Positions 24,719 through 41,463 are shown, counted from the stretch's first letter. The stretch is DNA of 64,000 nt from Candidatus Bathyarchaeota archaeon (GCA_963726255.1 CAVSBL010000002.1:224001-288000); one strand, 5' to 3'. Numbers and translations are program-made. The notes: generated by a model not told the origin, from the sequence alone.

Positions 24719-25141
24719 GTGCCGGAGTTCGTAGAAATCAGCATTAAGTGTCACAAGCTCGCGAAAGGATTTGGAGAAGGAGAAGCTTTGGTCTCCAAGG
24801 ATCCTATCTGCTTCTACCTAGTCGAGCCGAAGACCGGTATCGTTAGAGAGAAGGGGCATCAACTCGAGGGCAAGTCGATCGCGGGTAAAGTGCTAGTGTT
24901 TCCGACGGGAAAGGCGAGTTCCGCAGTCCAAATGGACGGGCTCGTCAAGTTGTTAATCTATAAGAACGCACCTCGGGCCATGATTGTAACGGATGTGGAG
25001 CCAGTTCTCTTGGGAAGCGCGGTTCTGACTAAGATCCCGCTCGTTGACAAACTGGAAAGGAACCCATTCGAGGCCATTAGCTCCGGGGACTTCGTGAAAG
25101 TGGACGCTGAGAAGGGTTCAGTTATCGTGACAAAAGGCTAA
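24719..25141 (+). CDS. Aconitase X small (swivel) subunit, DUF126
   Basis: GEGEALVS, GKVLVFPTGKASS, APRAMI; GTG start at 24719. Confidence 0.9.
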   Translation: MPEFVEISIKCHKLAKGFGEGEALVSKDPICFYLVEPKTGIVREKGHQLEGKSIAGKVLVFPTGKASSAVQMDGLVKLLIYKNAPRAMIVTDVEPVLLGSAVLTKIPLVDKLERNPFEAISSGDFVKVDAEKGSVIVTKG

Positions 25142-25488
25142 TCGAGAATTTCTCGCAAACCAAATGTTAGGACAGGCCATCAGCCCTACTGTTTCTTTGT
25201 GGACTTGATGGTGAGGCCGAAGGCTTTTAGTCCTCTTTTGAAGGCAGAGCGGTCGGCTCGCACCGCGCGTCTTCCGTGCGGGAGACAGCTCAAACCTTGT
25301 GCAAGAGTCCTCATACTTGGATCAAAAAACAATTCTTCATTGGCCCAAGTCATCCTGTTCATACCCGGATTTCTCCACCATCATTCGGGATGAGTAACAT
25401 AGTTTGCTCCTAAACAGGCGACACCCCCATCCCTCAGGGCTTGAGGGCACGGAGAAGATTTTCAGCACATGTTATACACGTGCAGGAT

Positions 25489-25505
25489 TGGTGGGGCCGA
25501 AGGGA
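25489..25505 (-). repeat. att-like copy of tRNA-Trp 3' end (internal boundary)
   Basis: 17/17 identical; followed by CACTGCG-TATA-CGAAGTG imperfect palindrome. Confidence 0.9.
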
Positions 25506-26065
25506 CTCACTGCGTATACGAAGTGGGTGTTACTCAATTGGGCCGTATTTCCTATGAGCAAGGCATGTCACTCCTTGAGCGACGATATACGCGGTCTTCC
25601 TCTTAGTGTTTGCGCGGCTGTCGGGCAATGTTGAGTTCAAATTGGTCTGCTCGCACCACTAGACCCACACACACAATTACTTGAACGACCGCGGGAGTTC
25701 AAATTCGGACGCCCGCGCCAAAATACCGCACACAAATGCTGCAACATGCTTGACAATCAAAGAGTGATCGGGCGCTAGCGACTTCGAAGGCCAGGATAGT
25801 TCTTGATTGCGAAAACCGAAAGTTGGTCGTCGCGAAGGCTTTCCAGTTCCCACGGTAAATTCGTCATTGGTGTTGCGGTTCCGAACGCTACCCATGATGG
25901 AGCAGCAGTTCCTCCAGTAGTTCTCTGAACGGCGTTGGCGACATTCTTTCCGAGCTTCTTCAAGATAAGTCAGATCGTCTGGCTGAGTGGTCGCCCCCAG
26001 CAGGAAAGTTTGAATCTGCAGATCACTGCTTAGTTAGACCCTGGAAGTACAGAGAGGAGAGCACG

Positions 26066-26410
26066 ATGAGCAACGAACAGGTGGCACCTGAGACGAAAGG
26101 TGTTACGGTGAAGTTACTTGCAACGGTTGACCTTGGCCCTGAGATCGAGGGCATGGCAGGGCGCCAACTTCGAATGCGTATGGTGACCATCGAGCCTGGA
26201 GGCGTCATCGGCCCGATTCACGACCATAAAGACAGACCAGGCACCGTCTACATACTGCAAGGAACGATCACTGACCATCGAAATGGAGTCGCTACGGACT
26301 ATGGGCCGGGAGTGGGCTGGCCCGAGGATAGGAACACCACACACTGGCTTGAGAACAGAGGAACGATTCCGGCGGTGGAGATCTCGGTCGACATAGTCAG
26401 GCAAGAGTAA
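26066..26410 (+). CDS. Cupin domain protein
   Basis: PGGVIGPIHDHKDRPG..YILQG and HWLENRG cupin motifs; GAGGAG SD. Confidence 0.92.
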   Translation: MSNEQVAPETKGVTVKLLATVDLGPEIEGMAGRQLRMRMVTIEPGGVIGPIHDHKDRPGTVYILQGTITDHRNGVATDYGPGVGWPEDRNTTHWLENRGTIPAVEISVDIVRQE

Positions 26411-26596
26411 GCTCAGGCCCTCTGGATCATACTACTGGGACTCACACTACTCACCGATCTTCGGATGGATGTTCACTGCCTGTCCGGGACTACTGAACTT
26501 TGCAGTTGTCGTTCGTCGTTCATGAAATTGTGTGTGTGGGGTATGCTGGTGCGCACACACACTTTTCTAACGAAGGACGTACAACGACAGTTCAAG

Positions 26597-27874
26597 TCAT
26601 TTCTTTACTAGCCCGTACCTGCTCTTGAAGTCGAATACGTTCACTACATAACTCGGACTGACAGCTTTCGCAATCCGTTCACTAGTCGAATCAGTTCTGA
26701 GTTCGAGCATCTTTTCTCCTATATTATAGCCGAGAGCCGCGAGAAGACCACCTACTGCGCCTATAGGACCAGCCGCAACTGTTCCCAATACTGCTATTCC
26801 AATCGTTATCCCTCCACGAATGAATCCTGTCTTTGATCCAATTGAGTCTGCTTCCTCCCATAATTTGTCCAAGATGTCTCCGAGTTTCTTCCCATTGGAT
26901 AGAATGTCCGAGTATTCTTCACTCTTGACTGCTTGGAGAAGGGAGGTTGATACTCCGTACAAATCGGTCTCACTGAACTTGTCACACATAGCTCTGCAAG
27001 CTTCATAGCTTGTAGGATAGGGAGCGAGCTTTTCCATGAGAAACTTGCCAATCTCTGCTAGGTTTGGGCTTGGAGCTTGTGAAACAAGAAGAGCCATGCC
27101 ATCTGGTGTCTTCATTGCAAGTTGTTCATGGCTTACGTTGTGAATTGCTCCAAAAATATCGAATGTTGGCTCCAATATCAATTGTACGCACAAGTTCGTA
27201 ACGTCCGCCAATTCTCCGAATTCGTCGTAGACCAATCTATCGCGAATGAATTCTTTCAAGTCGCGATAGCCCAAAAGCTCTAGCGCTGCGTATGTATCTG
27301 CAAATTTCTCCCACGCGGTTTTTGTTATATCGACTGCAGGGCCATATTTCCGCATGTAACGAGGGTCGAGATTTCGTCTGTTTGCGGTTGGGTATATGCG
27401 AATTCTGCAGAGAGTATCATATTCAATCAAAGCATCCCTATATCTTACCAGATCTGATGCGGAAAACTCTTCCTTATGAATTACGCCGTACCACTTTCGC
27501 GGCTTCAGGTCTAGAACCGGATCAAGGAAGTCCAATCCCGCATATTCCTCCGGGTCGCCGTTTAGAACAAATGCAACTCGCCCGGTATCCTTGGCAAAGT
27601 CTGCTAGACGGTCGACATCAGATGCATCAAACCCATGATATTTACTGAAATCGCCTTCTGAGTATGGCGCTACCGGAATTAGAAGGGTTCCAAAGAGCGG
27701 GATTTGCGGCCAAATACTCTCGCAGATCGCGCTCCATGCTATTGGTTCCCGAAGTTTAGGGTATCTCTGCGTGTAGTATGCTTTCATTTCAAATGGATCC
27801 ATTGATGACTTACTTAGTCGTGCGATTTCTTCACGTTCTTTGGCTGAGTAGTCTAACAACGATTCTTTATCCAA
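26597..27874 (-). CDS. Hypothetical protein with C-terminal Gly-rich hydrophobic hairpin
   Basis: 425-aa ORF between repeats; no recognised motif. Confidence 0.8.
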   Translation of the reverse strand: MDKESLLDYSAKEREEIARLSKSSMDPFEMKAYYTQRYPKLREPIAWSAICESIWPQIPLFGTLLIPVAPYSEGDFSKYHGFDASDVDRLADFAKDTGRVAFVLNGDPEEYAGLDFLDPVLDLKPRKWYGVIHKEEFSASDLVRYRDALIEYDTLCRIRIYPTANRRNLDPRYMRKYGPAVDITKTAWEKFADTYAALELLGYRDLKEFIRDRLVYDEFGELADVTNLCVQLILEPTFDIFGAIHNVSHEQLAMKTPDGMALLVSQAPSPNLAEIGKFLMEKLAPYPTSYEACRAMCDKFSETDLYGVSTSLLQAVKSEEYSDILSNGKKLGDILDKLWEEADSIGSKTGFIRGGITIGIAVLGTVAAGPIGAVGGLLAALGYNIGEKMLELRTDSTSERIAKAVSPSYVVNVFDFKSRYGLVKK

Positions 27875-28057
27875 GAGGTTGAGCCATTAGCCTCATCGAC
27901 TCAACACACTAAATAACTATTTTTCGTCGTCGGTATCCTAGTCCGCACGCCACGATGACGGTTCGATTTCTGTCGCTCGCACCATTGATACCACACACAC
28001 TAAATGACGGCAACTCAAATTACGCTACTCGCACCATTGGAATAGCCTGAAGGCGAA

Positions 28058-28350
28058 ATGAGCAATGAAGGAGAGCTAGTGGCCCAACGCATGTCAAAGA
28101 ATCAAGAATCAATTGATAATGCTTTTCTATTCTTGTTGACTTCGTTGACTTTGCTATTCGGAGTCTTGAACGACGCTGTTGACGGATTGCGAGCTGTTCT
28201 TCTTCAGATCCCGCTAATTATCTCAGGTTTCTTTTTTCCATTCTATATTGGCTACGTGCGAGGAGTAATAGACCCCGGTTCCAACGTAGAAAGGGTTCGA
28301 GGATGGATATTCTTTACATTTGGAGTTGCCACCTACGCATGGATGTTCAC
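28058..28350 (+). pseudogene. Truncated membrane protein gene
   Basis: Three TM-like segments, then the ORF runs into GC-rich non-coding-like DNA and repeats. Confidence 0.55.
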
Positions 28351-28805
28351 GGACTTCCGGGTTGTATGTTTCCGGGCCCGATTTCTGCTATGCGACACAT
28401 GCGGCCGGGTCCGGCGAAGGACCCTTGGCGGGTCTGACTCCGGAGGCCGGGCCGGAGAGGGGTTGTTAGGGGACACTTCCCCTAAACAGCAAACACCTAC
28501 ACCAACCGTTTCAAAGTGTGTGTGGATCTCTTGGTGCGACCGGCGCAATTTGAACCGCAGGGTCAAACGTAATTGTGTGTGTGCGCACCACTAGACCGGG
28601 GGTATAACATAGGGGCGGTTTTGGGGTGTCCACGTGGATGGGTTGGTGGGGACGTGGAAGTCCACGTGTACGCGAGATAATGAGACCTGCTTGACTACCA
28701 ATTGAATCGCTGTTACCAAAGTTTCGAAAAGCATGGAACACTACAGGTATGTTGATCTTTAGCCAAACCTCTAGGTGAGCTATAGAAAAGAACCTGTTCA
28801 GTCCC

Positions 28806-29198
28806 ATGGCGGCTTTGGATATGAGGAAGTCAACGATAATCTACGCCCTTCTATGGTTCCTAACTATTGTAGCGTTTTCTGTTCCATGGTACACAGTTGG
28901 TGGGCACACGTTTACCGGCTGGAATTTTGTCATTCCATTCTCAGCCAGCTATCTGATAGGCATCCTTCTGGGTCTCATAGTCCTGATTACTAAGCGATGG
29001 GCGTTTGGTCTTACCATTGTTGCAGGAATCTTGATGATACTGGGAATAGTAGGTGCGGGCATTGGCGGTGGAATAAGCGAAGCACTTAGCGGAGTAAGCG
29101 GTCAGACCACCACGGCCCAAGGTGGAATAGGTTTTGCTTTCGTGATTAGTTTGGTATACCTTGTCGGCGGAGCTGTTCTAGGTAAGCGAATGGAGTAG
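28806..29198 (+). CDS. Small four-TM hypothetical protein
   Basis: Four hydrophobic segments; PWY...TGW pattern. Confidence 0.75.
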   Translation: MAALDMRKSTIIYALLWFLTIVAFSVPWYTVGGHTFTGWNFVIPFSASYLIGILLGLIVLITKRWAFGLTIVAGILMILGIVGAGIGGGISEALSGVSGQTTTAQGGIGFAFVISLVYLVGGAVLGKRME

Positions 29199-29341
29199 CG
29201 ACTCGACAAACAACGGAAATAGGTTTAGCATGAGACATGGGGATTAAGGGTCCTTCCGCTGTCGTCGGATCTATTGGTGAGGTCCACGGGTACAACCGAG
29301 CAGAAATTCGTCGACTATCAAGTTGACTCTATGAATAGATG

Positions 29342-32300
29342 TTAGCCGCGTGGAGTCGAAAATTTCTCGTCATCCGATAATTCAAGCTTAATCATTTCAT
29401 CGATATCATGTATGCAAGAGTCAGCAATTACTCGGACAGTTTCTGAAGATACCTGATCATCCTTGATTTTCTGAAAGATCGCCTTACGTCGGACCAGCTC
29501 AGGCGGAGGTTCACCGGGTCTCGCCGTATATGCATGAGGCGGATGCGTCTTTCGGTAGAACATTGACTCAACTTGATTTCTTAATCCAGCTGAGATGCCC
29601 TCAGATCCAACCCTCGCGAAGATATTCGAATTATCTTCTTTGAGTTCTAGAAATTCACATGCGGTTAACGCGTTCTCGATTCTATGAGCGTTCAGCTGTC
29701 TATCGATGTATGTCGTAAGACTCGCCTGCATTTGAAGTCGATTCGGGTCTGCGAAGGGTAGGAAGAGATTGCGTAGGCACATTTGGTAGATTGCGTCTTT
29801 GCTGTACCATGCTATGACTGCGTCCATTAGTTTGTCGAATGCCTCGACTGATTTCGTCAAACTCGCTACTGCGTCGATTCCATCTCCAGGTATTGGCTCA
29901 TACTGGTAATCTTTCATGCGAATTGTTGAGAGGCGTTCCTGAAGGAGAAAGATTACTGACTGTATATCAGAGCACACAAACGAGATGATTCGTTGAGAAT
30001 CGTAGTCTAAGTTGGGCATCTCAACTAGTCGGTTCAGTAATGCCCTTCGCAGTAGTACAAGCTCATGTGAAGGAAGTGCCCCAATGATGTTTCCCTTCCG
30101 CAGGAGAACCAAAGACACAGCGAAGCTTAGCTGCTGATAATCATCCTCCATAGAAACTCCAAGACGCAATAGCTTAGTGAGTAAGTACACACTCTGAAAC
30201 TTGTCGAATAAGAAATCGAGATAGCTAATTACTTGATATTTGGTGCCGGAGCTTCCGAACGTCAGTAATTTGTGGAGCCAAAGGTATAAACTGAAAGAGG
30301 AAATTGTGTTCTTGGTAGTCGATTTAGTTCTGTTGTCGTCAATACGACTGAACTTGTCAAAGACGGCCGCAACGATCGTTTGATACCCTCCTTTGTCAAG
30401 TAATTCTATGAATCTACTATAGGTTCGAGACCTTGTAAATTGAAACCTGCATGTACATGCTAAAAAGGCCTGCACTTTTGACTCGGAAGTTCTCGGAAGT
30501 TCTGAAATAGTCTCCTCAGCCATCATTCGAAGGAAGCGCCCATCGAGTTCTGCAAGAGCTGCTTGCATTTCGTCCTTGAAGCGAGTCGGGGTGTCGGCCC
30601 AAAGTGCATTGTTGCTTCTAATTTCCGCGAACACTGGTCTCTGTTGATGAACCCATGAGGTTAGTATCGGAGCGGTCACACGGTTGGGCGGCTCCCGCAG
30701 CGATTTGTCCAATGACTTAAGAAATCGCAAAACGTCGCCAGGTGTAGGATACTTCTCTGGCAAAGTGGAGGTTATTTTGTCGAATTCTTCCGGTAAGAAT
30801 ACTCGTCTAGACGTGAATGACTGAATGAACCATTTCCAACGCCCATCCTGTGGTGCGTTTTTCCTCAGATTCTCGAAGCTCTCTGAGATGTAATATGGCG
30901 ATAGGTAGTGACTGAACATCAAATATTCAGAAGATCTAGGCATCGCTTCCAAGAACTTCTCAGTTTCCTCTGTACCAGGAGTGCTCTGTGCCCACCAAGT
31001 CAAGAACAGGTTCTCAATTTTGTTCAGAACTGCAAAATCCATATCTGATCTGATTGTGTTTCCTATTAGTCGAGTTACATGTCTCCTTTCTTGAGCAATT
31101 CTTGATTCAAGTGGCAAGGCACTCTCACTAACCCTTTGCAATCGAGTCTTTCCGAGAACTTCAGCAACATCTAGTGCTGCAATTCTTGCCTTTGGTGAAG
31201 AATGTTCGATCATAAGCGAGAGAACTCTAAGGGCTTCGTCTCTAATCGCTGTCACCTCGGCGGTTTGTGAAAGAATCTTTTCTCCGAACGTCACCCTGAG
31301 TGTCCTGGATTCTGAATATTCATGGGAACCAGCGAGAACCTCCGAAAGAGCTGGAAAGAGCAGCTCGACTTGTGTGTCCGATCCGTTTATCCAAGTTTCT
31401 AGGATCGACAGCGCCTCGCAGATCTGAGATGCGCTGTTCTGCAAAGGAGAGACGCATGAACGTATCAATGATTTTGTCTTGTAGTTGTCGTATCTGCCTG
31501 GAATGTTCTTCCTGTGAAGTAGATTGATGATGTCAAGTATTGTTGATCGAGATTGACGTGTTGAGATTAATTGCGCAATGACAGGTCCGTAGTCATCCGT
31601 TGATAGTGGCAGACGAGGGTCGTCGTCATCTCTTTCTATGTAACATCGAAGAAGGCGTGCACATTCGGTCGGAACGATCGGGGTTATGCTAGGAATCGCG
31701 TTGAGGACTCCTCGCATAGATCGGTGAGGTCCTTCGTTCGGATGTAATGACCAATGTAAAACATGTCCCGCCAATACTCGTCTAAGGCTTGGAACTTCTG
31801 CGTATTTAGCGGCTGATGCTAAGTTGTTCAGTGCGTTCTCAGGGGCGGTTTGAAGCCAGGGGTCAACCAACGAAATCAGGTTTTCTACATTCATGTTCTG
31901 AATCTGTCGCAAAAGGTACAGGTCGCCCTTCATGTCAGGGTTGAACCGGACCGTGTCGCCAATTTCTCTCAGTATTCCTGCTCTGATCATTCGATTCAAT
32001 GAATCTTGTAATAGCTCTCGCTCTTGCGATATCACCGTGGATATGCTTGAGATTGTTGGCGGGGATAAAGCGATGAATGTCTGTGAAATCGAAGTCGTCT
32101 CTCGTTTTGATATAGGAGATATCAAAGTCAGGTTTGTGACTAGCTGTGTTACAACATTTCTTGGCATTAACCCGTTAAGGCATTGAAACGCTTCGAATTC
32201 AAGTTCCCCACTCAGTCTTGCCTTAATTGCCTCGATGTCAAAAGTGGTCTGACCACTCAGACGCCTACCAATCCACACGATAATGAATGGATTCGGATAT

Positions 32301-33328
32301 TGGGCGACAATCTCTAACTCATCAGGCACGGTGTCCTTCCCAGCAGCAACATGCAACAGTTTGACGAGATCCTCAGAGCTCCAGTCCTCAATGCGTATGT
32401 CTTCGGAAAATTCTGCCAGCCTCAGGGCATTCAGTTGCTCGTTAACGGCCTGTAGTGCCGCGCTTCGTAGTGCGATAACCAGTTTCGTCGAACGCGGATT
32501 AGTCTTGCACATAGTCAATAATGATCTGAGATCGTCTGTAATCGCATCTGCCTCGTCCAGGAACAAGACGTATGCTCTGCCCGGCACAAGCTCATCTCCT
32601 ATCGCCTCGGTCATTGAACGCGGGCCTAGTCGGGTAGCCCATGGCTGAAAGAGATTGTTGGTTTGATGAGCTAAGCTGGCTATCTGTCGAAGAAGATGAG
32701 ATTTTCCATAACCGCCTGGAGAATGTACTAGGAGAACAGTGCGGTCAGACAACAGGAATCGCTTTGCTCTTGCCAGATATTGCTCGAACGACGAATTCAC
32801 GCCGTCGATTGGTAGGAGTTGCGGCGCGTTTTCGTTGAAATACAAGTTCCAAGGAACGAATTTTGGAAATTGTGGAGCGCCAAAAAAGAAGTGTCGTAAG
32901 AAAGGTTGACGCTCAATCCGAATGGTCAAGCGCTCTCGATGCCAGACTTTCAGAGAAATTGAGGTGCCCGTGTTCAGTTTTTCAAGAGTGCGTACTTGAG
33001 ACGTTTTCATTTGCGCATTTGTTGCAACTCTCAAATGGTCTGCTTTGTTTTGTTTCGCCTTGTCAAGCTCTGCTTTAATCTCCTTAGTAAGTATTCGTTG
33101 GGCCTCTTTCATCGATTTGGTTGTCCACTTTGATTGTATCGACCAATGTCCGCTGAGTTCTTCCATCGGATACTCCCCGGTGAAATCACCATCAAATCCG
33201 CCATCGGCTCCGATGTAAGGGCTGCTTGGTATGAATCCTGGGGAATTGCATTCTAACGCAAAGAGGTGATTCACCAAACGCTGAAACGTCTTCTCGTTGT
33301 CTATCCTTGACCATTCGAGCGTTGACAT
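29342..33328 (-). CDS. Mrr-like nuclease fused to STAND-type P-loop NTPase with long helical C-terminus (Avs-like defence protein)
   Basis: N-terminal FQRLV...GADGGFD...IQSK; Walker A SPGGYGKS; Walker B LFLDEAD; 1328 aa. Confidence 0.78.
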   Translation of the reverse strand: MSTLEWSRIDNEKTFQRLVNHLFALECNSPGFIPSSPYIGADGGFDGDFTGEYPMEELSGHWSIQSKWTTKSMKEAQRILTKEIKAELDKAKQNKADHLRVATNAQMKTSQVRTLEKLNTGTSISLKVWHRERLTIRIERQPFLRHFFFGAPQFPKFVPWNLYFNENAPQLLPIDGVNSSFEQYLARAKRFLLSDRTVLLVHSPGGYGKSHLLRQIASLAHQTNNLFQPWATRLGPRSMTEAIGDELVPGRAYVLFLDEADAITDDLRSLLTMCKTNPRSTKLVIALRSAALQAVNEQLNALRLAEFSEDIRIEDWSSEDLVKLLHVAAGKDTVPDELEIVAQYPNPFIIVWIGRRLSGQTTFDIEAIKARLSGELEFEAFQCLNGLMPRNVVTQLVTNLTLISPISKRETTSISQTFIALSPPTISSISTVISQERELLQDSLNRMIRAGILREIGDTVRFNPDMKGDLYLLRQIQNMNVENLISLVDPWLQTAPENALNNLASAAKYAEVPSLRRVLAGHVLHWSLHPNEGPHRSMRGVLNAIPSITPIVPTECARLLRCYIERDDDDPRLPLSTDDYGPVIAQLISTRQSRSTILDIINLLHRKNIPGRYDNYKTKSLIRSCVSPLQNSASQICEALSILETWINGSDTQVELLFPALSEVLAGSHEYSESRTLRVTFGEKILSQTAEVTAIRDEALRVLSLMIEHSSPKARIAALDVAEVLGKTRLQRVSESALPLESRIAQERRHVTRLIGNTIRSDMDFAVLNKIENLFLTWWAQSTPGTEETEKFLEAMPRSSEYLMFSHYLSPYYISESFENLRKNAPQDGRWKWFIQSFTSRRVFLPEEFDKITSTLPEKYPTPGDVLRFLKSLDKSLREPPNRVTAPILTSWVHQQRPVFAEIRSNNALWADTPTRFKDEMQAALAELDGRFLRMMAEETISELPRTSESKVQAFLACTCRFQFTRSRTYSRFIELLDKGGYQTIVAAVFDKFSRIDDNRTKSTTKNTISSFSLYLWLHKLLTFGSSGTKYQVISYLDFLFDKFQSVYLLTKLLRLGVSMEDDYQQLSFAVSLVLLRKGNIIGALPSHELVLLRRALLNRLVEMPNLDYDSQRIISFVCSDIQSVIFLLQERLSTIRMKDYQYEPIPGDGIDAVASLTKSVEAFDKLMDAVIAWYSKDAIYQMCLRNLFLPFADPNRLQMQASLTTYIDRQLNAHRIENALTACEFLELKEDNSNIFARVGSEGISAGLRNQVESMFYRKTHPPHAYTARPGEPPPELVRRKAIFQKIKDDQVSSETVRVIADSCIHDIDEMIKLELSDDEKFSTPRG

Positions 33329-33490
33329 ATCGGCGACGCTCTACCGTAAGTAGAATGGCCCAAACCCGTATACGTTCAATTGCTGAAGAGAACGTTGTAT
33401 CTCATCTAGTCGCTCTCTCATGGTCATTATCGGCAATTTGATTCCGAGGTATTCCCACAAGTGAGAAGGCCGTATTTGTGTTGTGGACAC

Positions 33491-33525
33491 CCGAAGGGAT
33501 TCACTGCGGCTACGTGGTGGGTCTT
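33491..33525 (-). repeat. Partial att copy with flanking palindrome
   Basis: CCGAAGGGATT then CACTGCG-GCTA-CGTGGTG-GGTCTT, matching the motif at 42753-42780. Confidence 0.75.
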
Positions 33526-33673
33526 CACCAAATTCCGATCAAGTGAAGACAATCTTGTTCTGACCACATTTCGATATACAATAGGCTCTGTTTCTCTTTA
33601 GCGTTTGCGTCTTAGCTGAGGCTTGCGAATTTTCTGGACGTATCGAGAATCGACTCAGGGGGTGGAGCTGAAA

Positions 33674-33700
33674 GCGTCGGGGGTGGGATTTGAACCCCCC
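33674..33700 (-). pseudogene. 3'-half remnant of a tRNA-Ser-like gene
   Basis: Reverse strand GGGGGGTTCAAATCCCACCCCCGACGC; T-arm and acceptor 3' strand only. Confidence 0.65.
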
Positions 33701-33948
33701 GTAGTTCCCGTGCTTGGCTGGATGAACACAGGACCTCTATCAGTCTGCGAGCGTTTATCATCGGGCAATCTGCTCACGTTCTTGAATAGTGTGTGAACCC
33801 AATAGGGGTCCCGTAATGATCTGGGCACGCCTTTTTCCGCTCAGCCGGAACCTAAATGTAAGGATGGTTTGAACGCCGCGGCGGAGTAACACCCTTATCG
33901 TGATCATCCCTGTGATTCATATTAGCTAGGCACCCGGATGCTTGCAAC

Positions 33949-34782
33949 TTGAGCACAGGAATTTTTGTTCAGACACGTGCTCTTCAATTTCTCAGAGGTC
34001 AGTTTAACAAAGACATTGGACTTTGCTATGAGTCGCATGATCCTTCAACCCCCACCTTTCAACAGACGTTTTGGACAATGAACGATAACGGACTGGCTGT
34101 GCGAGCCTTTGAGAGGCTGGGAGATACGAACACCGCAAATATGATCGCCCAACAGCTACAGAGTCTACCGTTACCATTTGGTCATAATTCTTTCTTCAAT
34201 AATGGATGGGCTGATTGTTTCATTCATCAAGAAATCATAACACCTTCTCCGTTTCGAGGAACGCAATGCTATAGGTTTCTGAATGAAAGTGGTGAGCTGT
34301 CACCATCGATGGACTGCAAAGGCGGCCTAGAAGGAATCATGCACGAGGAAGCAAATGGTGGGCTGATGCGCGACGAAGAAAATTACTTCTTGTTGTCGGC
34401 TAGTAAAGCGCTCAATTGCCACAAGGCAGGAGACCCCACGAACAGAGATAGACTCGTTGCTCATATCGAGCAATTCTGGGATAATGACAACACTGGCTTT
34501 CGCGATATGATAGACACACCACCAGCTTCCCTGAAGAATACGATGAAGCTTGCCGTATACATAATTCTGGGAGCAAGGTGCGGTTGGCCACCGACGTTTT
34601 CTACAACTCTTCCAACGCAAGCGAAGAGACTAATGAATAGTCTTCAACTAGCCAATGGAGGCTTTGCTACGCAGTATTTCATCCACAACGGTGCAATCTA
34701 CTGGCCTCGAACCGACACCCATGGTAATATTGAAACCACCAGTGTTTGCGTATTGGCAAACATTAATCCGAACACATACTAG
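33949..34782 (+). CDS. Hypothetical protein, possible alpha/alpha-barrel fold
   Basis: 277-aa ORF; LQLANGGF resembles a prenyltransferase-like repeat; ETTSVCVLA. Confidence 0.7.
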   Translation: MSTGIFVQTRALQFLRGQFNKDIGLCYESHDPSTPTFQQTFWTMNDNGLAVRAFERLGDTNTANMIAQQLQSLPLPFGHNSFFNNGWADCFIHQEIITPSPFRGTQCYRFLNESGELSPSMDCKGGLEGIMHEEANGGLMRDEENYFLLSASKALNCHKAGDPTNRDRLVAHIEQFWDNDNTGFRDMIDTPPASLKNTMKLAVYIILGARCGWPPTFSTTLPTQAKRLMNSLQLANGGFATQYFIHNGAIYWPRTDTHGNIETTSVCVLANINPNTY

Positions 34783-34938
34783 AACGAACAAAGACCACAA
34801 ACAATCGAGATCAGGATATTCTCTGCAAGTAATTACTCTGAAAAATTGGGCTAATCCAATGGGGCGCAAAAGAAATAGCGACGAAACAGCCACATTTGCA
34901 GTGCGCCAAATTCCGATTCCTTCGGTGAGGAATAGACC

Positions 34939-35150
34939 TTGATGGCTTCAACTCACATGGCTTTCGGGTTCGTGTCTAGCTATTTCCTCGCTGTCGTCCT
35001 TGCTACCCGTATTGCAAGTTGGGCCTATCCGGTTATCATGCCGGTTACTGCTGTCTTCGCTCTCGTGGGTGTCTTCGGAGGATTGTTTCCAGATATCGAC
35101 CAGTTCGAGTTCTGGGGACCAACATGGATCAGAAAGTACTTATTTCATGA
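34939..35150 (+). pseudogene. Truncated YdjM-like membrane metal-dependent hydrolase
   Basis: THMAFG...GGLFPDID N-terminal motifs; expected downstream HR.xTHS motif missing. Confidence 0.65.
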
Positions 35151-35438
35151 TTTGGTTTATCTCAGCAGTTTTCGATGTACAGATTCGAGCCAAGGACCGG
35201 CAAGCGAAAGAACTGGCGATTTCCCATTGAGTGTTTGGTCACTGGGCTTATCAAGAAACTTTTTCCTGAAACTGTCAAATATATCGACCGAGGATTTAAC
35301 ATTCAGGACTTCGGCTGGCTGGGAACTTCTCATTACAGGATCTAACACTTCAACCTCAGGGCAGCGACTATTACGTTTTGACGAGATGAGAAGTCACTAA
35401 ATTGTAGTTCGGATGATTACTTAAGACAAGGGTGAAAG

Positions 35439-36575
35439 ATTGCGCGCAGGGTTCTTTGGGTCGTCGGCTTCCTAGGTCTGCTTTCTACTATAATTGTCTC
35501 ATCATGCCTCGTGTCCTTCTATGGTCAGATATCGCGGCAATACGATTTCATACCTTTCAAACTTAGAGTTAGACCTGGAACAAATGGCGACGGCGGAATC
35601 TCGTTCGCACCAGGCATCATGCCCACAAACCCTCAAAATCCAATACTCAAGTCTCCTCTAAGTCTCACCAGCCCGGGCGACCTTGGTACATCGGGTGACC
35701 TAATCACCGACTGGGACACTTCTAATTGGGCAACCCTCGCTGTCGTGGACGGACGTTCTACACCAGCAATTCTAGCAGCGAATTACGGTGAGGAGGGAGG
35801 ACAGGTCGCTTACGTTACGAATCAGTTGGCGCCTTTTCCGAAACTTGTCTATGACCTTCTGGCGTGGCATTTCGATGGATCACAGAATAGGACAATCAAA
35901 ATCGCGGTTATGATCGAAAGCATGGTGCCCCCTGAGCAGATTCTCAACGACTGGGATGGGTGCTTCCAAGAAGTCGCAACATTGGCGAGTGAGAATAGAA
36001 CTTCCTGGAATATTCAGTATAGCAGAATACGAGTCTTTCAGTTGAACAACTTGGACCTCAACCGGTTTGATGTTCTGGTTTTGGCTGTAGGTTGGGGAGA
36101 CGGCTACTTTTCTACAGGCTGGAATTGGAACATCCATCAAGGCGGCGCGGCGGCGCGTCGATTTGTTGGACGGGGCGGTCTTCTTCTGTTGCCTGAAGCT
36201 GGCTTCTACGACGATTACGGGTTTTGGCTTGGGGATCGCCAAATAGTTTTTCCAGTTGCGGCTTTAGAGGCGAGTTTGAGCAGTCAGGCGAACGCATTCG
36301 CGATGGCTGGCGCATCATTGTCCGGTATTGGATTCCTGTACACGATTAAGAAGGATTACCTTACGGAACCAAGTTATGCCTGGATCACGATGTACCTCTT
36401 CTTAGTAGGCTTCATCTGGTTCATGGTACCAATCTTCTTTTCTGGAAACTTATGGGCGCAAACTTCGGTCGTCTTAACCGCGACAGTCCTTGATGGCGTC
36501 GCAATATTCTCAGCCCTTGTAGCCATTGTCTTGAGACAGATACATTCGGGAGCAGCTAATTCCACTGATCCATAA
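35439..36575 (+). CDS. Hypothetical membrane protein with extracellular domain and three C-terminal TM (possible ATT start; track start 35511)
   Basis: FDVLVL...FVGRGGLLL resembles a class I GATase-like fold; in-frame signal-like segment upstream of 35511. Confidence 0.7.
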   Translation: MARRVLWVVGFLGLLSTIIVSSCLVSFYGQISRQYDFIPFKLRVRPGTNGDGGISFAPGIMPTNPQNPILKSPLSLTSPGDLGTSGDLITDWDTSNWATLAVVDGRSTPAILAANYGEEGGQVAYVTNQLAPFPKLVYDLLAWHFDGSQNRTIKIAVMIESMVPPEQILNDWDGCFQEVATLASENRTSWNIQYSRIRVFQLNNLDLNRFDVLVLAVGWGDGYFSTGWNWNIHQGGAAARRFVGRGGLLLLPEAGFYDDYGFWLGDRQIVFPVAALEASLSSQANAFAMAGASLSGIGFLYTIKKDYLTEPSYAWITMYLFLVGFIWFMVPIFFSGNLWAQTSVVLTATVLDGVAIFSALVAIVLRQIHSGAANSTDP

Positions 36576-36915
36576 TCCACAAAGGCGTTCGGTTATCTCC
36601 TTTGGCATCGCCTCAAGCATAATCACGTCGGTTCGCGTCCCGTGGAATCCCAGTAGCTTAGCTCCAAGAGCGTGTTTGGATTGGGGAGGAACTTACGTTT
36701 TGAACGAAAATGGGGGAAGGAAACACTGATCAGTACTGTTTTCCGCAGCACTTACGAGGAACGATGCTATTTTCATTATACTAAATCAGATTCAGCGTCA
36801 AGCATCACGCTGAAACGATCTCAGTGCAAACTGTTCTGTGAGTCAGTTCGATTCCTTAACCGAGATAACATTCCGTAGGGAATGCGCTTACTTTAACTGA
36901 ACCGTATCACGCTGT

Positions 36916-38391
36916 ATGACTAGTAGTAATTACCGTACATGCCTAATCGTTAAGCACGGCATGGAACACTGTGTACTAGTGGTTATTTTCCGCGTCGGTC
37001 ACGCTTTCGCGTGCGTGCTTCTTGTCTTCCTAGTTGTTGTCATCGCGCAGGGTTGCGTAACTGCTCAGACTGCTCCGACAGTTGCGCCGAAAGTTACCAT
37101 CGAGCTTTCTCCCGCCACTATTAATGCTGGGTCGAACACGACTCTTGCCGTCACCGTGAGCGATCCAGGAAACTCAAGTTTCACCTACTCCCAGTTGAAC
37201 ATCACAACAATAATTCCACCCCGCTGGAAGTGCGAGTCTGATGTTGGGGCGGATTGCTCAATCCATTCAGTCCTCAATCTCATGAAGGGGCAGTCGAACT
37301 TGACTGAGTATCGAATTTCAATACCGCCGGATGCCTCGCAAGGGGACTATATGATCCACGTGCGCGTGAGTTGGAATCAAACCTATTCCGCAATATACTC
37401 GGCGCGAGTTTCAGTTCAATACGTTCTCGGACCTTCACTTCCAGGTGAAATCCCATTCGTTCTGGCAGTCATGATTCTACCGGGATTCATCGCATTCGCA
37501 ATAGGTGTTTACCTAGGTGGGTCAAAGCTAAGTGACTGCTCGGTGCTGCAACTCGTGCTCGTCAGCATTCTCTTTGGCGCATTCATTTGGCAGACTGGCG
37601 GGCTCAGCATTATTCTGGCGACCTCTAACGCGAACGTCTTACTGAAGACGCTTTCGAACACTGACTTCTTTCAGACGGCTCCTTTCGACTGGTCGAAGTT
37701 TTGGACCATCCTGAATTTGCAGAACATCTGGGTGAGAACGGGGCTGATTGCCATCGCAATTGCAATCGCGGCTCGAATTGGTTCAGTAGCGAGTTGGGTT
37801 TGGCAGAAGTTGGGATTGACATCTCCTGGCAAGCTGTGGCAATGGTGGGATAGCTTGGTAGGAGGTCCCGAAGAAGTGCGTACTACAGCTTGGGAAACTC
37901 AGATGCGTTACTCGCGTCTGAATATACGAGGGTACCGGCGTAAGATCACGCTAACCTTGGCCCAGCAAACTAAGCCGTCAGATGCAGCTAAGCCACCAGA
38001 TCAAACTAAGACGCTAACTGGATTGTTCGTCGCGGGAGAAAAGAAGGATCCACTGAATCTGATTCTGGACCCGCAATACATCGTAGAAGATGCGTCGAAT
38101 CTACATCTTGATTTTACGAGCGCACCTTTCTGGCATAGGCTCTCGTATGTAATCAGACAACGCAAAGACATGAACCATGAATTGAGTGGACTTATCATAG
38201 AGAAAGCCCTGAAAGAAGCGAGAGAGAATAACAAGAAAATATCGACTAATGATAAACTCACAAATCTCACTGGTCGAACTCTGATCCGTGAACAGGTTCT
38301 CGAATGGGAGATATCACCGGATCCAGAACCCATAGCCAAGTTTAGGATCGGTGATGGCTATGTAACTCCCTATGATAAGTCAAAAAAATAG
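36916..38391 (+). CDS. Hypothetical membrane protein with Ig-like domain
   Basis: Signal-like segment, beta-rich domain ending IPPDASQGDY, then TM helices; start uncertain. Confidence 0.72.
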   Translation: MTSSNYRTCLIVKHGMEHCVLVVIFRVGHAFACVLLVFLVVVIAQGCVTAQTAPTVAPKVTIELSPATINAGSNTTLAVTVSDPGNSSFTYSQLNITTIIPPRWKCESDVGADCSIHSVLNLMKGQSNLTEYRISIPPDASQGDYMIHVRVSWNQTYSAIYSARVSVQYVLGPSLPGEIPFVLAVMILPGFIAFAIGVYLGGSKLSDCSVLQLVLVSILFGAFIWQTGGLSIILATSNANVLLKTLSNTDFFQTAPFDWSKFWTILNLQNIWVRTGLIAIAIAIAARIGSVASWVWQKLGLTSPGKLWQWWDSLVGGPEEVRTTAWETQMRYSRLNIRGYRRKITLTLAQQTKPSDAAKPPDQTKTLTGLFVAGEKKDPLNLILDPQYIVEDASNLHLDFTSAPFWHRLSYVIRQRKDMNHELSGLIIEKALKEARENNKKISTNDKLTNLTGRTLIREQVLEWEISPDPEPIAKFRIGDGYVTPYDKSKK

Positions 38392-39133
38392 AGGAAAGAA
38401 CTAACTGAACATTGATTTGAAATTTACAAGCAAGAGAGGCATCGTTGTGATAGGATGGTTCAGCGTTTCCTCTATGGTAGTAAAATAGGTAAAAAGGTAA
38501 AAAGCAAATCGTCCATTTTCCGTTGCGTCCTATATATCTATCAGTTCTTGATTCTCCCACGGTTCTCCGGGCTTTCGTTTACTTCCTGAATCGTGTGTGC
38601 TCTAATGGTGCGGGTACCCAAATTTGAACAGAGGTTTGCGCCCTAGCTTCGTGTGTGTTGGTGCTATCTGTGCGATCTAACTGAGAGTATGTGCGCTGTG
38701 TTCTGAATAGCACGTCAATGAACTTGGTGCCGCTTTCTAGGTAAAAGGTGCCGTTTTCCTTGAAGGGGCCACTTGGTAGGTAAAAATGCCTTCGAAGCAT
38801 TAAAAACATGGGAATGAGCATACGCACACGGACAAAGTATGTTGGACTTACCAGAGATCGACCCTCACCATCCGTATGTTCCATACGAGGCAGAGAGCAT
38901 GCGAGAAGCTATGGTAGAAGGAGAATGGGTGAAGAGAACCCGTGTCGTTACTAGAATGTCTATTTATCCTTGGGTTAAGCGCGAGTATGTCGAAGAAGAC
39001 CCCAGCAGAATTAGAACCAGAGTTATGTACACGCTTATGTGGCAGTAGATTTCTTAGCGTTCTGAATTAGTGTGAGCCATTTGTTCTCTCTCCTTTGCCC
39101 TGCCGCTCTTCAGTTGAGTCGGTCTGGAAGCAT

Positions 39134-39176
39134 TTCGAACCCTTGAAAAGCAGGGTTCGAATCCCTTCGACCCCAC
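39134..39176 (+). repeat. Inverted, intron-free tRNA 3'-half copy within a palindrome
   Basis: TTCGAACCCT-N8-AGGGTTCGAA followed by TCCCTTCGACCCCAC. Confidence 0.75.
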
Positions 39177-39267
39177 GAATCAGTGTGTTTGTAGTCTTCC
39201 TGTGGGAAACCTAACTAGAAAAAATGTCCAAAATAAGGCGGGGATTCGATTCTTCGAGAAATCGGTT

Positions 39268-39352
39268 TGTTCGTTTGTTCGCTGAGCCCAAATATGTTCG
39301 CTCCTTGCGAACGTGTTCGCTAGTAGCGAACATTCATATATGATAGCGAACA
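39268..39352. promoter_or_regulatory. Putative autoregulatory operators and TATA box of the AbiE-like operon
   Basis: GTTCGC-N5-GCGAAC at 39296-39312 and 39315-39331, extra half-sites, TATAT about 25 nt before ATG 39364. Confidence 0.72.
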
Positions 39353-39363
39353 CACTCTTCCCC

Positions 39364-40044
39364 ATGCGAGTTGTTCGGAATATCTTCGAAATCAAATCGT
39401 CCAGAGCAATTAGGGTCTTGTTATCTAACCCGGGCAGAAAATGGACTATCAGGGAGCTCGCATCCGAGGCCAGGGTGGCTTTCGGATATGTTCATGCGGT
39501 GGTCGCCAATCTGATGCAGAGTGGCTACTTGCTGAGGAACCAGGTCAATCGGCTGGAACTCGTTGATCCAATTCGTCTTATCAAACGGTGGGCCGCCTAT
39601 CACCAATTCAATGCCGTTAACAAGATGCTTCCCTACTACACTTTTGAAAGAGAAATAGACACTCTGATCGGTAAATTGCAGGACGTTGAGCAGGACTATG
39701 CGCTTACCTCTTTGTCGGGTGCTTGGCTTGCGGTTCCGCAGGTCAGACCTGTAATGATCGAAGCCTACATACGCGATGCTTTGCAGGCTGAGAAACTATC
39801 CAAGCAGTTGCAACTAAAGCCGATTCCGAAGGAAGGGAACGTCCGTCTGATCGTGCCATACGATGACGGAGTCTTCTACAAGGCTCAGAAAATTGAAGGA
39901 ATTCGGATTGTCTCTAATGTTCAGCTATACGTGGATCTTTACAACTACCCGGCTAGAGGAGAGGAAGCGTCATTGGCGGTGTTGGCGCTGGTCGAGAACG
40001 CTTGGAAGCAAGCGCTAATCGGTGTGACGAAGACAATTGTATGA
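39364..40044 (+). CDS. AbiEi-like type IV antitoxin (wHTH regulator)
   Basis: TIRELASEARVAFGYVH HTH; YALTSLSGA, GNVRL, VQLYVDL..RGEEA. Confidence 0.82.
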   Translation: MRVVRNIFEIKSSRAIRVLLSNPGRKWTIRELASEARVAFGYVHAVVANLMQSGYLLRNQVNRLELVDPIRLIKRWAAYHQFNAVNKMLPYYTFEREIDTLIGKLQDVEQDYALTSLSGAWLAVPQVRPVMIEAYIRDALQAEKLSKQLQLKPIPKEGNVRLIVPYDDGVFYKAQKIEGIRIVSNVQLYVDLYNYPARGEEASLAVLALVENAWKQALIGVTKTIV

Positions 40045-41164: not shown

Positions 41165-41174
41165 ACGGTCGAGG

Positions 41175-41426: not shown

Positions 41427-41463
41427 GGCGAACTCTTCATATGCCGAACCTTAAGAGGGTTTA

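Follow-up and report, generated by a model that had tools for sequence, protein, structure and literature searches.

tRNA-3′-like sites around single-gene cassettes in Bathyarchaeia as probable junctions of casposon-type transposition

The window analysed here, a single strand of 64,000 nt from Candidatus Bathyarchaeota archaeon (GCA_963726255.1, CAVSBL010000002.1:224001-288000), contains at 25666..28583 a 2.9-kb composite element that ends in (CA)n inverted repeats and encloses three cargo genes as well as internal landing sites. Judged from sequence, its limits are defined by identical 14-mers (at 25652 and 28584) placed around perfect 15-bp inverted repeats, and it encloses a cupin gene, a gene for a 425-aa protein and a putative membrane protein gene. 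The cupin cargo block (26033..26418, + strand) carries a Pfam Cupin_2 gene at 26066-26410, and its ends at 26033 and 26418 do not lie at (CA)n ends in the window. The 425-aa cargo gene (26597..27874, − strand) has no assigned family; matches were found in two of 23 genomes including the window genome, the other being 29% identical and situated in a site-rich island of G014, and within the genus the gene itself is present in the window genome only. Look-alikes of the 425-aa protein are bacterial hypothetical proteins, which may serve as a lead. The third cargo gene is read from a 178-aa open frame (28058..28594, + strand) for a putative membrane protein with no family match. Since the 3′ part of this frame crosses site 6 (see below) and a stretch at 28353-28590 that is a multi-copy repeat in the genus, the real gene is probably shorter.

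The original prediction placed seven related sites between 25633 and 28597, and all seven were confirmed there; an eighth copy lies beyond this range. Each site reads as a transposon junction composed of a tRNA-3′-end-like leader GGTTCAAATT-N8, a 14-bp target CGCACCA-N7 and (CA)n inverted-repeat ends. Site 1 (25636-25674, + strand) runs from leader through 14-mer to left end. Its leader (25636..25651, +; TTCAAATT followed by GGTCTGCT) mimics the T-loop and acceptor strand of a tRNA and lies directly 5′ of the presumed integration target; its 14-mer (25652..25665, +) begins with CGCA and is identical to 28584..28597 (+), these two being the sole copies in the window; and the left terminal inverted repeat (25666..25680, +; CACACACACAATTAC) is the exact reverse complement of the right one (28569..28583, +; GTAATTGTGTGTGTG). 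The right repeat and the second copy of the 14-mer constitute site 7 (28569-28597, +), which the original prediction had described, exactly as found, as the two halves of 25652-25680 with one half inverted.

Just inside the left end lies site 2 (25698-25735, +), with the leader TTCAAATT plus CGGACGCC and the 14-mer CGCGCCAAAATACC at 25698..25727, followed by a degenerate CA-rich end GCACACAAATG. It is mirrored just inside the right end by site 6 (28516-28554, −), an inverted internal leader (TTCAAATT plus GCGCCGGT) with the 14-mer CGCACCAAGAGATC and CACACACAC. Site 3 (26530-26562, −) has GTGTGTGTG where other sites have the TTCAAATT part and forms a tandem junction, in which the right end GTGTGTGTG is followed by the 14-mer CGCACCAGCATACC and the left end of the next segment, CCACACACAC. 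Site 4 (27962-28000, +) combines a leader variant (TTCGATTT plus CTGTCGCT) with the 14-mer CGCACCATTGATAC and the left end CACACACAC. Site 5 (28014-28043, +), with the leader CTCAAATT plus ACGCTACT and the 14-mer CGCACCATTGGAAT, has no CACAC or element end behind it and is an unoccupied internal landing site. The eighth site (38599..38628, −), in the same strain-specific island, shows the leader TTCAAATT plus TGGGTACC, the 14-mer CGCACCATTAGAGC and ACACACG. The six occurrences of CACACACAC in the window all fall in the site locus, against 0.25 expected from 100 shuffles, and TTCAAATT-N7-YCGCRCCA with up to three mismatches matched nine times against 2.27 expected, a count of nine being reached in one of 100 shuffles. 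None of the five inner 14-mers (sites 2-6) is repeated anywhere in the window, indicating that the nested history must include rearrangement or loss.

Our results support the view that the sites are derived from, or are mimics of, tRNA 3′ ends. The distance of 12 nt from TTCAAAT to the discriminator plus CCA matches the geometry of a tRNA 3′ end, as originally proposed, and is shared with the real tRNA genes of the window genome, which encode CCA. The acceptor strand of the sites is absent from all listed real tRNA 3′ ends of this genome, and no site was called a tRNA by ARAGORN or matched in Rfam, even at E<=10 in the latter. Most targets are tRNA mimics rather than real tRNA genes, and only tRNA-Ser(GCT), at genome position 198091, has a CA-rich end behind its 14-mer.

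The sites belong to a large family, and a scan of the genome and its relatives, as suggested with the original prediction, did not find the motif confined to this locus. CGCACCA-N7-CACACAC with at most one mismatch has 42 matches in the window genome, against one for the reversed control, and was matched in all 18 other searched genomes of this Bathyarchaeia genus; a looser rule gave 78 sites in the window genome, including some six real tRNA 3′ ends. The commonest form (type B, 179 of 366 unique copies) is GTGTGTGTG-CGCACCA-N7-CACACACAC, while type A (110 copies in the consensus) consists of leader, 14-mer and left end. CGCA opens the 14-mer in 95-99% of copies and is preceded by the T-loop/acceptor-like leader, and 65 of the 110 leaders sit 10-35 nt inside a (CA)n end. 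The 7-nt spacer that had been described as variable does differ among the five window copies, but over the 110 copies its consensus is nCGnTGCY, four of these positions being conserved in 62-89% of copies, and it is therefore not a free crossover spacer. In the window genome the sites are mostly intergenic and cluster in strain-specific islands. They show no orientation bias relative to flanking genes (same/opposite strand 17/12 upstream and 15/14 downstream for type A; 17/14 and 14/17 for type B), so the alternation around genes noticed at the locus does not reflect a fixed relation of site to gene. No long-range covariation emerged from mutual information computed over 110 copies of type A and 179 of type B. 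Read from the sequence, type B could fold into a 9-bp GU/CA hairpin with a 14-nt loop.

Pairs of ends across the family carry the marks of target duplication. Of 242 left-end/right-end pairs in the correct orientation and at most 30 kb apart, 20 had identical 14-mers, compared with one of 146 outward-facing and eight of 483 opposite-strand control pairs; 300 label shuffles gave a mean of 2.2 and a maximum of 7 identical oriented pairs. Rare 14-mers occur among the matched pairs, for example CGCAACATTAGACC around a 289-bp element, and the matched elements range in size between 289 bp and 4.2 kb. A perfect (CA)n inverted repeat of 7-15 bp is shared by the two ends in 16 of 18 such elements, while the ends of the other two share 0 and 1 bp. 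Most elements measure 0.3-4 kb, lack an integrase and contain no or few cargo genes. Empty and occupied targets could also be compared directly at the conserved flank 3′ of the target (28598..28690, +; GGGGGTATAACATAGG...). The same flank follows an uninterrupted leader plus 14-mer, that is, an empty target, at L148 (G006), L150 (G007) and L152 (G018), whereas it follows GTGTGTGTG plus 14-mer, an occupied target, at L149 (G008) and in the window. It counts against a casposon reading that identical 14-mers are restricted to these 20 of the 242 oriented pairs, most junctions having no partner, and that the inner 14-mers of the window element do not recur.

That the sites bound single genes or small gene groups that move, as first proposed, is borne out by cargo shared between species. 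At 97-98% identity the cupin gene recurs in two other species, G015 and G004, for which the neighbouring core gene, AcnX, shows only 83% and 76% identity; in both genomes the cupin gene sits in other contexts, again between sites. The 14-mers flanking the G004 cupin element are identical, those in G015 match at 13 of 14 positions, and the G015 block lies between its 14-mers without (CA)n ends. In another island, MFS, DUF116 and CBS blocks are 93-98% identical in G015, G004 and G011 and differ in order, with at least four of eight examined block ends falling at junction sites. The cargo is of accessory type (cupin, SnoaL, CMD, glyoxalase and hydrolases) and represents ordinary cellular genes rather than viral or plasmid modules, and gene order differs between close relatives. 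Two observations speak against the casposon reading. At the level of islands, sites do not delimit the differences of the window genome from its closest relative: a 2.2-kb block missing from G033 has its junction at ordinary sequence, and window positions 25197-42664 are replaced by 4.3 kb without sites. The cupin block, moreover, has no (CA)n ends at its borders either in the window or in G015. The idea of mobile cassettes is supported, and the tyrosine-recombinase or pdif mechanism attached to it is not.

Cas1 was found neither in the window element nor anywhere in the window genome. The elements of this genome are therefore non-autonomous, their mobility depending on an enzyme from elsewhere unless they arrived ready-made by gene transfer, and no activity is demonstrable there, which also counts against the casposon reading. 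TnpB copies of the window genome lie elsewhere. When ORFs from 115 Bathyarchaeia loci chosen solely by the type-B motif were clustered, Cas1 formed the third largest cluster (8 members in 8 loci), and a 604-aa family without known domain was more frequent near sites (15 members in 13 loci). Of the 22 other genomes in the genus, 16 carry Cas1, often in several copies, many of which are truncated or interrupted by stops, and these genes lie near motif copies; G018 alone has 13 matches. In G014 a 410-aa Cas1 is encoded within an element of 8.6 kb whose 14-bp flanks, CGCACCACTATACC, are identical. Outside the genus, the motif-rich genomes G028 (20 copies) and G030 (31 copies) contain casposase-like fragments at 42-61% identity, while among ten motif-poor genomes (0-3 copies) eight have no match and two have weak partial ones at 38-41% identity.

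The best solved relative of these Cas1 proteins is 6OPM, the Methanosarcina mazei casposase, with E 6.9e-71 for an alignment that spans residues 9-404 and takes in the C-terminal part, whereas CRISPR Cas1 proteins gave E 3e-25 or worse, and the catalytic E/H/E positions align identically with 6OPM. By these alignments the protein resembles casposases more than CRISPR Cas1 and is of the casposon type. A search of five Cas1-bearing genomes found no Cas2, and Cas1 is the sole gene common to nine Cas1 neighbourhoods. Neither the ten scanned genes of the G014 8.6-kb element nor the surroundings of Cas1 copies in five genomes include a family-B DNA polymerase (PolB); a PolB gene 5 kb from Cas1 in G014:C8 is separated from it by a junction site, and its same-sized counterparts (870-875 aa) in G015 and G002 are not beside Cas1. 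The Cas1 copies, having no family-B polymerase with them, consequently fall outside the original definition of casposons as self-synthesising elements. G018 encodes one protein-primed PolB about 11 kb from Cas1 fragments.

Taken together, the sites are probably junctions left by casposon-type transposition, and there is good reason to think that in Bathyarchaeia of soil and sediment small gene-carrying elements, moved by a stand-alone Cas1, accumulate as arrays of cassettes with one gene each. A Cas1-family integrase (casposase) would recognise the leader GGTTCAAATT-N8, which resembles the last ~25 nt of a tRNA, make staggered cuts around the adjoining 14-bp target CGCACCA-N7 and join DNA with 3′ ends ...GTGTG, the element ends being (CA)4-6 inverted repeats, after which repair would leave the 14 bp duplicated. 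Type A would then represent leader, duplication and left end, and type B the place where two successive elements meet, the right end of the first and the left end of the second sharing one duplication. An extra leader and target lie just inside the ends of many elements, so that new insertions could enter old ones or settle next to them and give rise to islands made up of single-gene units; window positions 25666-28583 would be such a composite element without an integrase gene. The sequences show directly how the sites are built, the duplications, the empty and occupied targets, the association with Cas1 in relatives and the near-identical cargo of different species. From association in relatives and likeness to the characterised system, we infer that the Cas1 homologue is the enzyme and that it reads the leader; any order of the nested events is likewise a deduction.

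It is unlikely, but the best-surviving of the alternatives, that the 14-bp repeats and (CA)n ends mark the family of another, unrecognised transposase, with stand-alone Cas1 as a frequent cargo. Such a transposase would account for a window genome rich in junctions and devoid of Cas1, and the commoner 604-aa family near the sites would be compatible with it; moreover, since only Cas1 is conserved around Cas1, Cas1 looks like one cassette among others. Nevertheless, a 14-bp duplication, a 5′ CGCA and a tRNA-3′ leader are hallmarks of family-2 casposases in the published descriptions (PMC6977970, PMC4779613), the Cas1 found here is nearest to the M. mazei casposase with its catalytic residues kept, and the many decayed copies recall the behaviour of a transposase gene.

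A reading of the sites as REP/BIME-like repeats or as small RNA, promoter or terminator elements, with nearby gene mobility incidental, is very unlikely. It could draw on the possible type B hairpin and the mostly intergenic position of the sites; however, orientation bias and covariation were not detected, the window genome has no match to the Y1 transposase (PF01797, RAYT), Rfam offers none for the sites, and identical flanking 14-mers and the pairing of empty with occupied targets would be left unexplained.

Less credible still is a mechanism on the lines of the original prediction, in which a tyrosine recombinase would use the sites as core sites, each with a 6-8 bp crossover spacer flanked by two arms, and reciprocal site-specific recombination would excise, invert or capture cassettes in the manner of pdif modules or integrons. 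Single genes between sites in mixed orientation, integron-type accessory cargo and a gene order that varies among close relatives would all suit this mechanism. However, PF00589 has no match in the window genome, although the same search was positive in 14 of 14 control genomes, and the tRNA-Gly-linked integrase that had been suggested was not seen. The variable 7-8 nt belong to the leader instead of lying between binding arms, and the flanking repeats are direct 14-mers beside inverted-repeat ends, an architecture that indicates transposition, not reciprocal site-specific recombination; the enzyme associated with the sites in relatives is a Cas1-family casposase. Ghaly et al. (2022) describe archaeal integrons with IntI, canonical attC sites and cassettes that mostly point the same way (PMC9668308); no attC-like structure is apparent here. 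Just as implausible are leftover tRNA 3′ fragments (att sites) from virus or plasmid integration by SSV- or pNOB8-type integrases, for although the sites resemble tRNA 3′ ends including CCA and cluster in strain-specific islands, the window genome has no integrase that we found and no extant tRNA with this acceptor strand, the repeat that flanking sites share is 14 bp and extends past CCA instead of being a long tRNA segment, the post-CCA sequence and (CA)n ends are conserved in hundreds of copies, the cargo is cellular, and the tandem junction occurs in no viral contig.

Casposon-type transposition, the preferred explanation, can be compared with several known systems. In M. mazei, casposons are described with a 14-bp duplication that has a conserved 5′-CGCA and overlaps the last 4 bp of tRNA-Leu (PMC6977970, PMC4779613); integration requires 15-30 bp of upstream tRNA sequence (PMC6977970), and tandem casposons separated only by one shared duplication are reported, as are solo ends (PMC4779613). 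The elements studied here agree with these family-2 casposons in the 14-bp duplication opening with CGCA, in terminal inverted repeats and in tandem elements with a shared duplication, as well as in the full-length similarity of the relatives' Cas1. The M. mazei target lies at a tRNA 3′ end and depends on upstream sequence; here tRNA-like sequence is the target, and leader dependence is predicted. Differences are equally clear, in that no family-B polymerase or HNH gene adjoins Cas1, the ends are only (CA)4-6 compared with a 31-bp inverted repeat in M. mazei, leader and target copies lie inside the element ends, the host belongs to Bathyarchaeia and the window genome lacks a casposase. Junctions number dozens per genome, against one to a few elements in M. 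mazei, where the strains covered by the published study have casposons at three loci only (PMC4779613).

The casposon of Aciduliprofundum boonei likewise prefers a site at a tRNA 3′ end, produces a 14-15 bp duplication and needs an upstream leader (PMC6614799, PMC6977970), but as described there it is a single large PolB-encoding element, and small-cargo arrays do not feature in that description. Only five terminal 3′ residues are reported as critical for it (PMC6614799), which fits the very short (CA)n ends seen here. Casposons have been described as 8-20 kb Cas1-polB islands (PMC9939771); the window element shares with them the terminal inverted repeats and the 14-15 bp duplication, whereas it contains neither Cas1 nor PolB, Cas1 within an element being found in the related G014 element. 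Among the other systems, integrons resemble these loci in forming arrays of mostly single accessory genes with short recombination-related sites and cross-species cassette sharing, whereas the loci here combine mixed orientation, leaders with 14-bp duplications and (CA)n ends, and have none of the IntI, folded attC or single orientation of integrons. MITEs and other non-autonomous DNA transposons are alike in their many short copies, inverted-repeat ends, target duplications and dependence on an enzyme encoded elsewhere for want of a transposase of their own, and are unlike in lacking the strong specificity for a tRNA-like leader, the frequent cargo genes and the presumed use of a Cas1 homologue instead of a DDE transposase. 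CRISPR arrays share a Cas1-family integrase, a leader by the integration point, a short target duplicated with each insertion and growth of the array at one locus, whereas here the repeats are 14 bp long, differ between sites and run in both directions, the inserts are gene-sized and Cas2 was not found.

Interest in casposons comes mainly from their presumed role as the ancestor of CRISPR adaptation. More tentatively, the stand-alone Cas1 might here drive a platform for gene cassettes instead of a self-replicating transposon, which would amount to a Cas1-based function of the integron kind. Landing pads of leader plus 14 bp inside the element ends would let arrays extend themselves, and with few terminal bases needed, nearly any DNA of gene size could be captured, stacked, reshuffled and exchanged between species, even where proper inverted repeats are missing, as in the G015 cupin block. 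Such a platform, if it exists, would be a present-day counterpart of the intermediate that has been proposed between casposon and CRISPR array, with a leader, a short duplicated repeat, foreign inserts and no polymerase.

Integration chemistry of the casposon kind appears to have yielded dozens of small, polymerase-less, cargo-carrying elements per genome, which form islands of single genes, and near-identical cargo is shared between species of an archaeal lineage widespread in soil, peat and sediment. For the annotation of these genomes, the motif flags where islands vary and where cassettes begin and end. Should the Cas1 homologue prove to be the enzyme, the system would offer a natural setting for work on how a leader is recognised, how a short target is duplicated and how loosely substrates are chosen, all of which bear on the origin of CRISPR arrays, would widen the known range of Cas1-driven mobility, and would provide a mechanism for the exchange of accessory genes in uncultured Bathyarchaeia.

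The seven related sites that the original prediction placed at this locus were borne out when window 25000-29400 was read and its coordinates were checked by script. Sites 1, 2, 4, 5 and 6 have the form (ACGACGG)TTCAAATT-N8-CGCACCA-N7-CACACACAC, here called type A, and in sites 3 and 7 (type B) GTGTGTGTG immediately precedes CGCACCA; another copy, the eighth, is found at 38599-38628. All six occurrences of CACACACAC in the 64-kb window are at this locus, against 0.25 expected. The distance from TTCAAAT to the discriminator and CCA is the same as in the real tRNA genes of the window's own genome (G000), which encode CCA. ARAGORN called no tRNA at any site and none in the window, and Rfam, searched at its gathering threshold and again at E ≤ 10, matched no site, the sole weak hit being an unrelated snoRNA. 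The copy at 28569-28597 does consist, exactly, of the two halves of the copy at 25652-25680 with one half inverted, since CGCACCACTAGACC stands at 25652 and 28584, with no third copy in the window, and CACACACACAATTAC (25666-25680) recurs in reverse complement at 28569-28583.

An arrangement of this kind, with a perfect 15-bp inverted repeat framed by a 14-bp direct repeat, is the signature of transposon insertion with a 14-bp target-site duplication, and here it bounds a composite element of 2.9 kb (25666-28583), both ends of which present, in order, the end, ~15 nt, TTCAAATT, N8, CGCRCCA-N7 and a CA-rich end. We read type A as a tRNA-3'-like leader followed by the duplication and the left end of an element, and type B as a junction at which a single duplication is shared between one element's right end and the following element's left end. 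None of the inner 14-mers of the window element (sites 2-6, n = 5) recurs anywhere in the window, and the nested events in this element must include recombination or loss.

The motif is not confined to the locus. In the 2.42-Mb assembly to which the window belongs, CGCACCA-N7-CACACAC with at most one mismatch was matched 42 times, versus once for the reversed control, and a looser rule gave 78 sites, about six of them true tRNA 3' ends; the sites are grouped in islands and are mostly intergenic. Each of the 18 genus members searched besides G000 had matches (2 to 83 each), two further genera in the order gave 20 and 31, and the remaining ten genomes searched in the order gave 0-3. When the genomes of 185,579 species were scanned for the type-B pattern, the matches came almost exclusively from Bathyarchaeia/Bathyarchaeota MAGs, of which many have record titles bearing peat- or soil-project labels, together with a few contigs filed under bacterial bins, and no exact tandem-junction match was found in viral contigs. 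Consensus building drew on 366 unique copies (110 type A, 179 type B, 83 other) and gave, for type A, aacgacGGTTCAAATT.cG.TGCcCGCACCA..AGAcCCACACACACa, in which the supposedly variable spacer is semi-conserved, true variability being limited to three bases before CGCACCA and two after it.

Pairing of the junctions could be assessed in G000 and the fetched loci, where properly oriented left-end/right-end pairs within 30 kb carried identical 14-mers in 20 of 242 cases. The controls gave 1/146 for outward-facing pairs, 8/483 for opposite-strand pairs, and a mean of 2.2 (maximum 7) over 300 label shuffles; the other 222 oriented pairs lacked identical 14-mers, so that most junctions genome-wide are partnerless. 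The elements matched by their 14-mers range from 289 bp to 4.2 kb, and 16 of 18 have (CA)4-6 common to both ends, corresponding to 7-15 perfect bp. Of 110 leaders, 65 are located 10-35 nt inward from a (CA)n end, and TTCAAAT follows within 50 nt in 84 of 289 ends, compared with 22 in the control. The presence of a further leader and target just inside many ends explains the nested and tandem arrays.

The flank starting at window 28598 was encountered in both states, directly after an unbroken leader and 14-mer in G006, G007 and G018 (empty), and after GTGTGTGTG and the 14-mer in G008 and in the window (occupied). Its first ~90 nt (28598-28690; GGGGGTATAACATAGG..., with palindromes of the CCACGTGG type) form a module conserved in five or more genomes (79-89% identity), always immediately after leader and 14-mer; it may represent either a portion of the favored genomic target or the terminus of a different element. 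At G000:C2:198047-198113, the 3' end of a real tRNA-Ser(GCT) gene (CGCACCATAATACT) is followed by CCCACACA and then by an inverted leader and 14-mer; among the real tRNAs of the genome, only this one appears to have had its 3' end used as a target. ARAGORN called seven tRNAs in G000 with introns disallowed (five with an unreadable anticodon) and 35 with introns allowed, so that nearly all tRNA genes of this genome are called with introns; calls with very long "introns" (1-2.8 kb) are probably false or split genes.

Comparisons between whole islands are less favorable to the junction reading. Instead of window 25197-42664 (17.5 kb), the closest relative, G033, has an unrelated 4.3 kb between flanks that are 97% identical, and the regions downstream of AcnX in five relatives have no sites, so that they yielded no orthologous empty site for the window element. 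At another island, a 2.2-kb difference between G000 and G033 is likewise not bounded by sites, and these island-level differences from the closest relative count against the reading. The 17.5-kb stretch is a hypervariable island, and possibly a defence island; it includes a gene for a 1328-aa STAND NTPase (29342-33328), of which searches of 22 further genus members revealed no copy.

Between sites lie mutually unrelated genes of accessory or even housekeeping type, including those for cupin, MFS, subtilase, DUF116, hemerythrin, DUF998, TspO, MarC, CBS, hydrolase, CMD, SnoaL and TBP. G015 and G004 have the cupin block (window 26033-26418) at 97% and 98% identity, in each case in another context between sites, and the neighboring AcnX gene is 83% and 76% identical, respectively. 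The cupin copy in G004 sits in a ~0.6-kb element with identical CGCACCATTAGACC flanks, and that in G015 has no (CA)n ends and is flanked by 14-mers matching in 13 of 14 bases. Within a second island, identity to G015, G004 and G011 is 93-98% over the MFS, DUF116 and CBS blocks and 72-83% over the other matched stretches; at least four of the eight block ends inspected coincide with junction sites, the blocks are ordered differently in G000 and in G033/G004, and the MFS unit of G015 has identical CGCACCAGCTGACC on both flanks. In public runs, which yielded contigs and hence attest presence and nothing more, the cupin block was several-fold deeper than its flanks in two and ran on into at least four different flanks in one. 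Contigs of run X1, which may be the source sample of the assembly, tile the window locus without differences, and the uncovered parts of the stretch in X3 and X5 are uninformative. Three repeat "joints" in the public runs, considered for excision or inversion, have sides of <30 letters at 90% likeness and are not evidence of either. A TBP gene at L130:1918-2514 (G000:C2:438918-439514) adjoins a junction site. Numerous TBP paralogues are present in each genome throughout the genus, with 73-90% of nucleotides identical (for G006, six matches are listed), and they may have spread as cargo of the elements.

When ORFs from 115 Bathyarchaeia loci fetched by the motif scan were clustered, the third largest cluster was Cas1, with eight members in 8 loci. 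Among the genus's 22 other genomes, 16 have Cas1, often in several copies, many truncated or with stops (13 matches in G018), close to motif copies, and it is the sole gene common to nine Cas1 neighborhoods; Cas2 was found in none of five Cas1-bearing genomes. In G014, a 410-aa Cas1 lies inside an 8.6-kb element between identical CGCACCACTATACC flanks, and no polymerase was found among the 10 genes scanned in this element. The best solved relative of this protein is the Methanosarcina mazei casposase 6OPM (E = 6.9e-71; match to residues 9-404, C-terminal region included), versus 3e-25 or worse for CRISPR Cas1 proteins, and the catalytic Glu/His/Glu residues of the two are identical in the alignment. 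In a class-wide sample of 201 genomes, Cas1 at E ≤ 1e-40 was detected in seven, six of them of the same order. No Cas1 was found in G000 itself, indicating that its elements are relics, need an enzyme supplied from elsewhere, or entered the genome in blocks. Association and analogy suggest that Cas1 acts on the sites. In G018, Cas1 fragments (967881-968892) and an empty target (960865) have a protein-primed-type PolB (PF03175; G018:C4:956660-957331) at distances of ~11 kb and ~4 kb, respectively; this polymerase could belong to a polymerase-bearing relative of the Cas1-linked elements or to an unrelated provirus.

According to two reports on M. mazei casposons (PMC6977970, PMC4779613), these elements have 14-bp duplications with a strictly conserved 5'-CGCA that is the last 4 bp of tRNA-Leu, require 15-30 bp of upstream tRNA sequence for integration, and can stand in tandem with nothing but a common duplication between them; solo ends are also known. 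For the A. boonei casposon (PMC6614799), a leader upstream of the site is needed and the critical element residues are the five terminal 3' ones only. Every one of these points has a counterpart here, in CGCA-CCA-N7, the tRNA-like leader, the type-B junctions and the very short (CA)n ends. Unlike published casposons, however, the Cas1 here is not accompanied by a family-B polymerase, junctions number dozens per genome, most elements are small and without integrase, and many ends hold an extra leader and target just inside. No account of such elements was found in the open literature on Bathyarchaeota integrons/attC, casposons, non-autonomous/MITE elements and PolB-less casposases.

Of the proteins near the sites, the most frequent cluster comprises KaiC-like ATPases, some with TPR repeats, and the second comprises proteins of ~130-940 aa (representative 604 aa; L039, L167 and others; 15 members in 13 of 115 loci); both were treated as putative cargo. 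The 425-aa, 178-aa, 130-aa and 604-aa proteins match no Pfam or NCBIfam family, and the proteins that resemble the 425-aa one in the Atlas belong to unnamed bacterial clusters. A GC-rich ~240 nt in the 3' part of the 178-aa frame (28353-28590) is a separate dispersed repeat, 78-83% identical at several places in G015 and G004, through which this frame is probably over-extended. Another repeat of 60 nt upstream of site 1 (25369-25428) is multi-copy in the genus at 87-97% identity (G004, G014, G015, G033, G000:C2:86839 and 1320813). A 5S rRNA gene lies at 1975-2096 on the minus strand (Rfam, 83.4 bits).

The original prediction was that tRNA-mimic sites bound mobile single-gene cassettes, which stands, and that a tyrosine recombinase exchanges them at a crossover spacer, which does not. 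In G000 no PF00589 tyrosine recombinase and no Y1 transposase (PF01797) was detected, and its TnpB copies are far from the islands; the PF00589 negative includes XerA-like proteins in a genome rated 98.5% complete, and the same search matched 14 of 14 control genomes. An RNA structure finds no support in mutual information (110 type A, 179 type B), which revealed neighbor effects only and no base-pair covariation, or in Rfam, which gave no relevant match. A promoter or terminator role is disfavored, since 78 sites show no orientation bias relative to crude gene calls, site orientation being unrelated to that of the flanking genes. Split or intron-bearing tRNA halves can be dismissed, as the T-stem and acceptor partners are missing upstream of the leaders on reading the sequence. 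Casposon-type transposition with a 14-bp duplication is a mechanism that we consider quite probable, and the system is best filed as polymerase-less, largely non-autonomous, cargo-carrying casposase elements arrayed in Bathyarchaeia.
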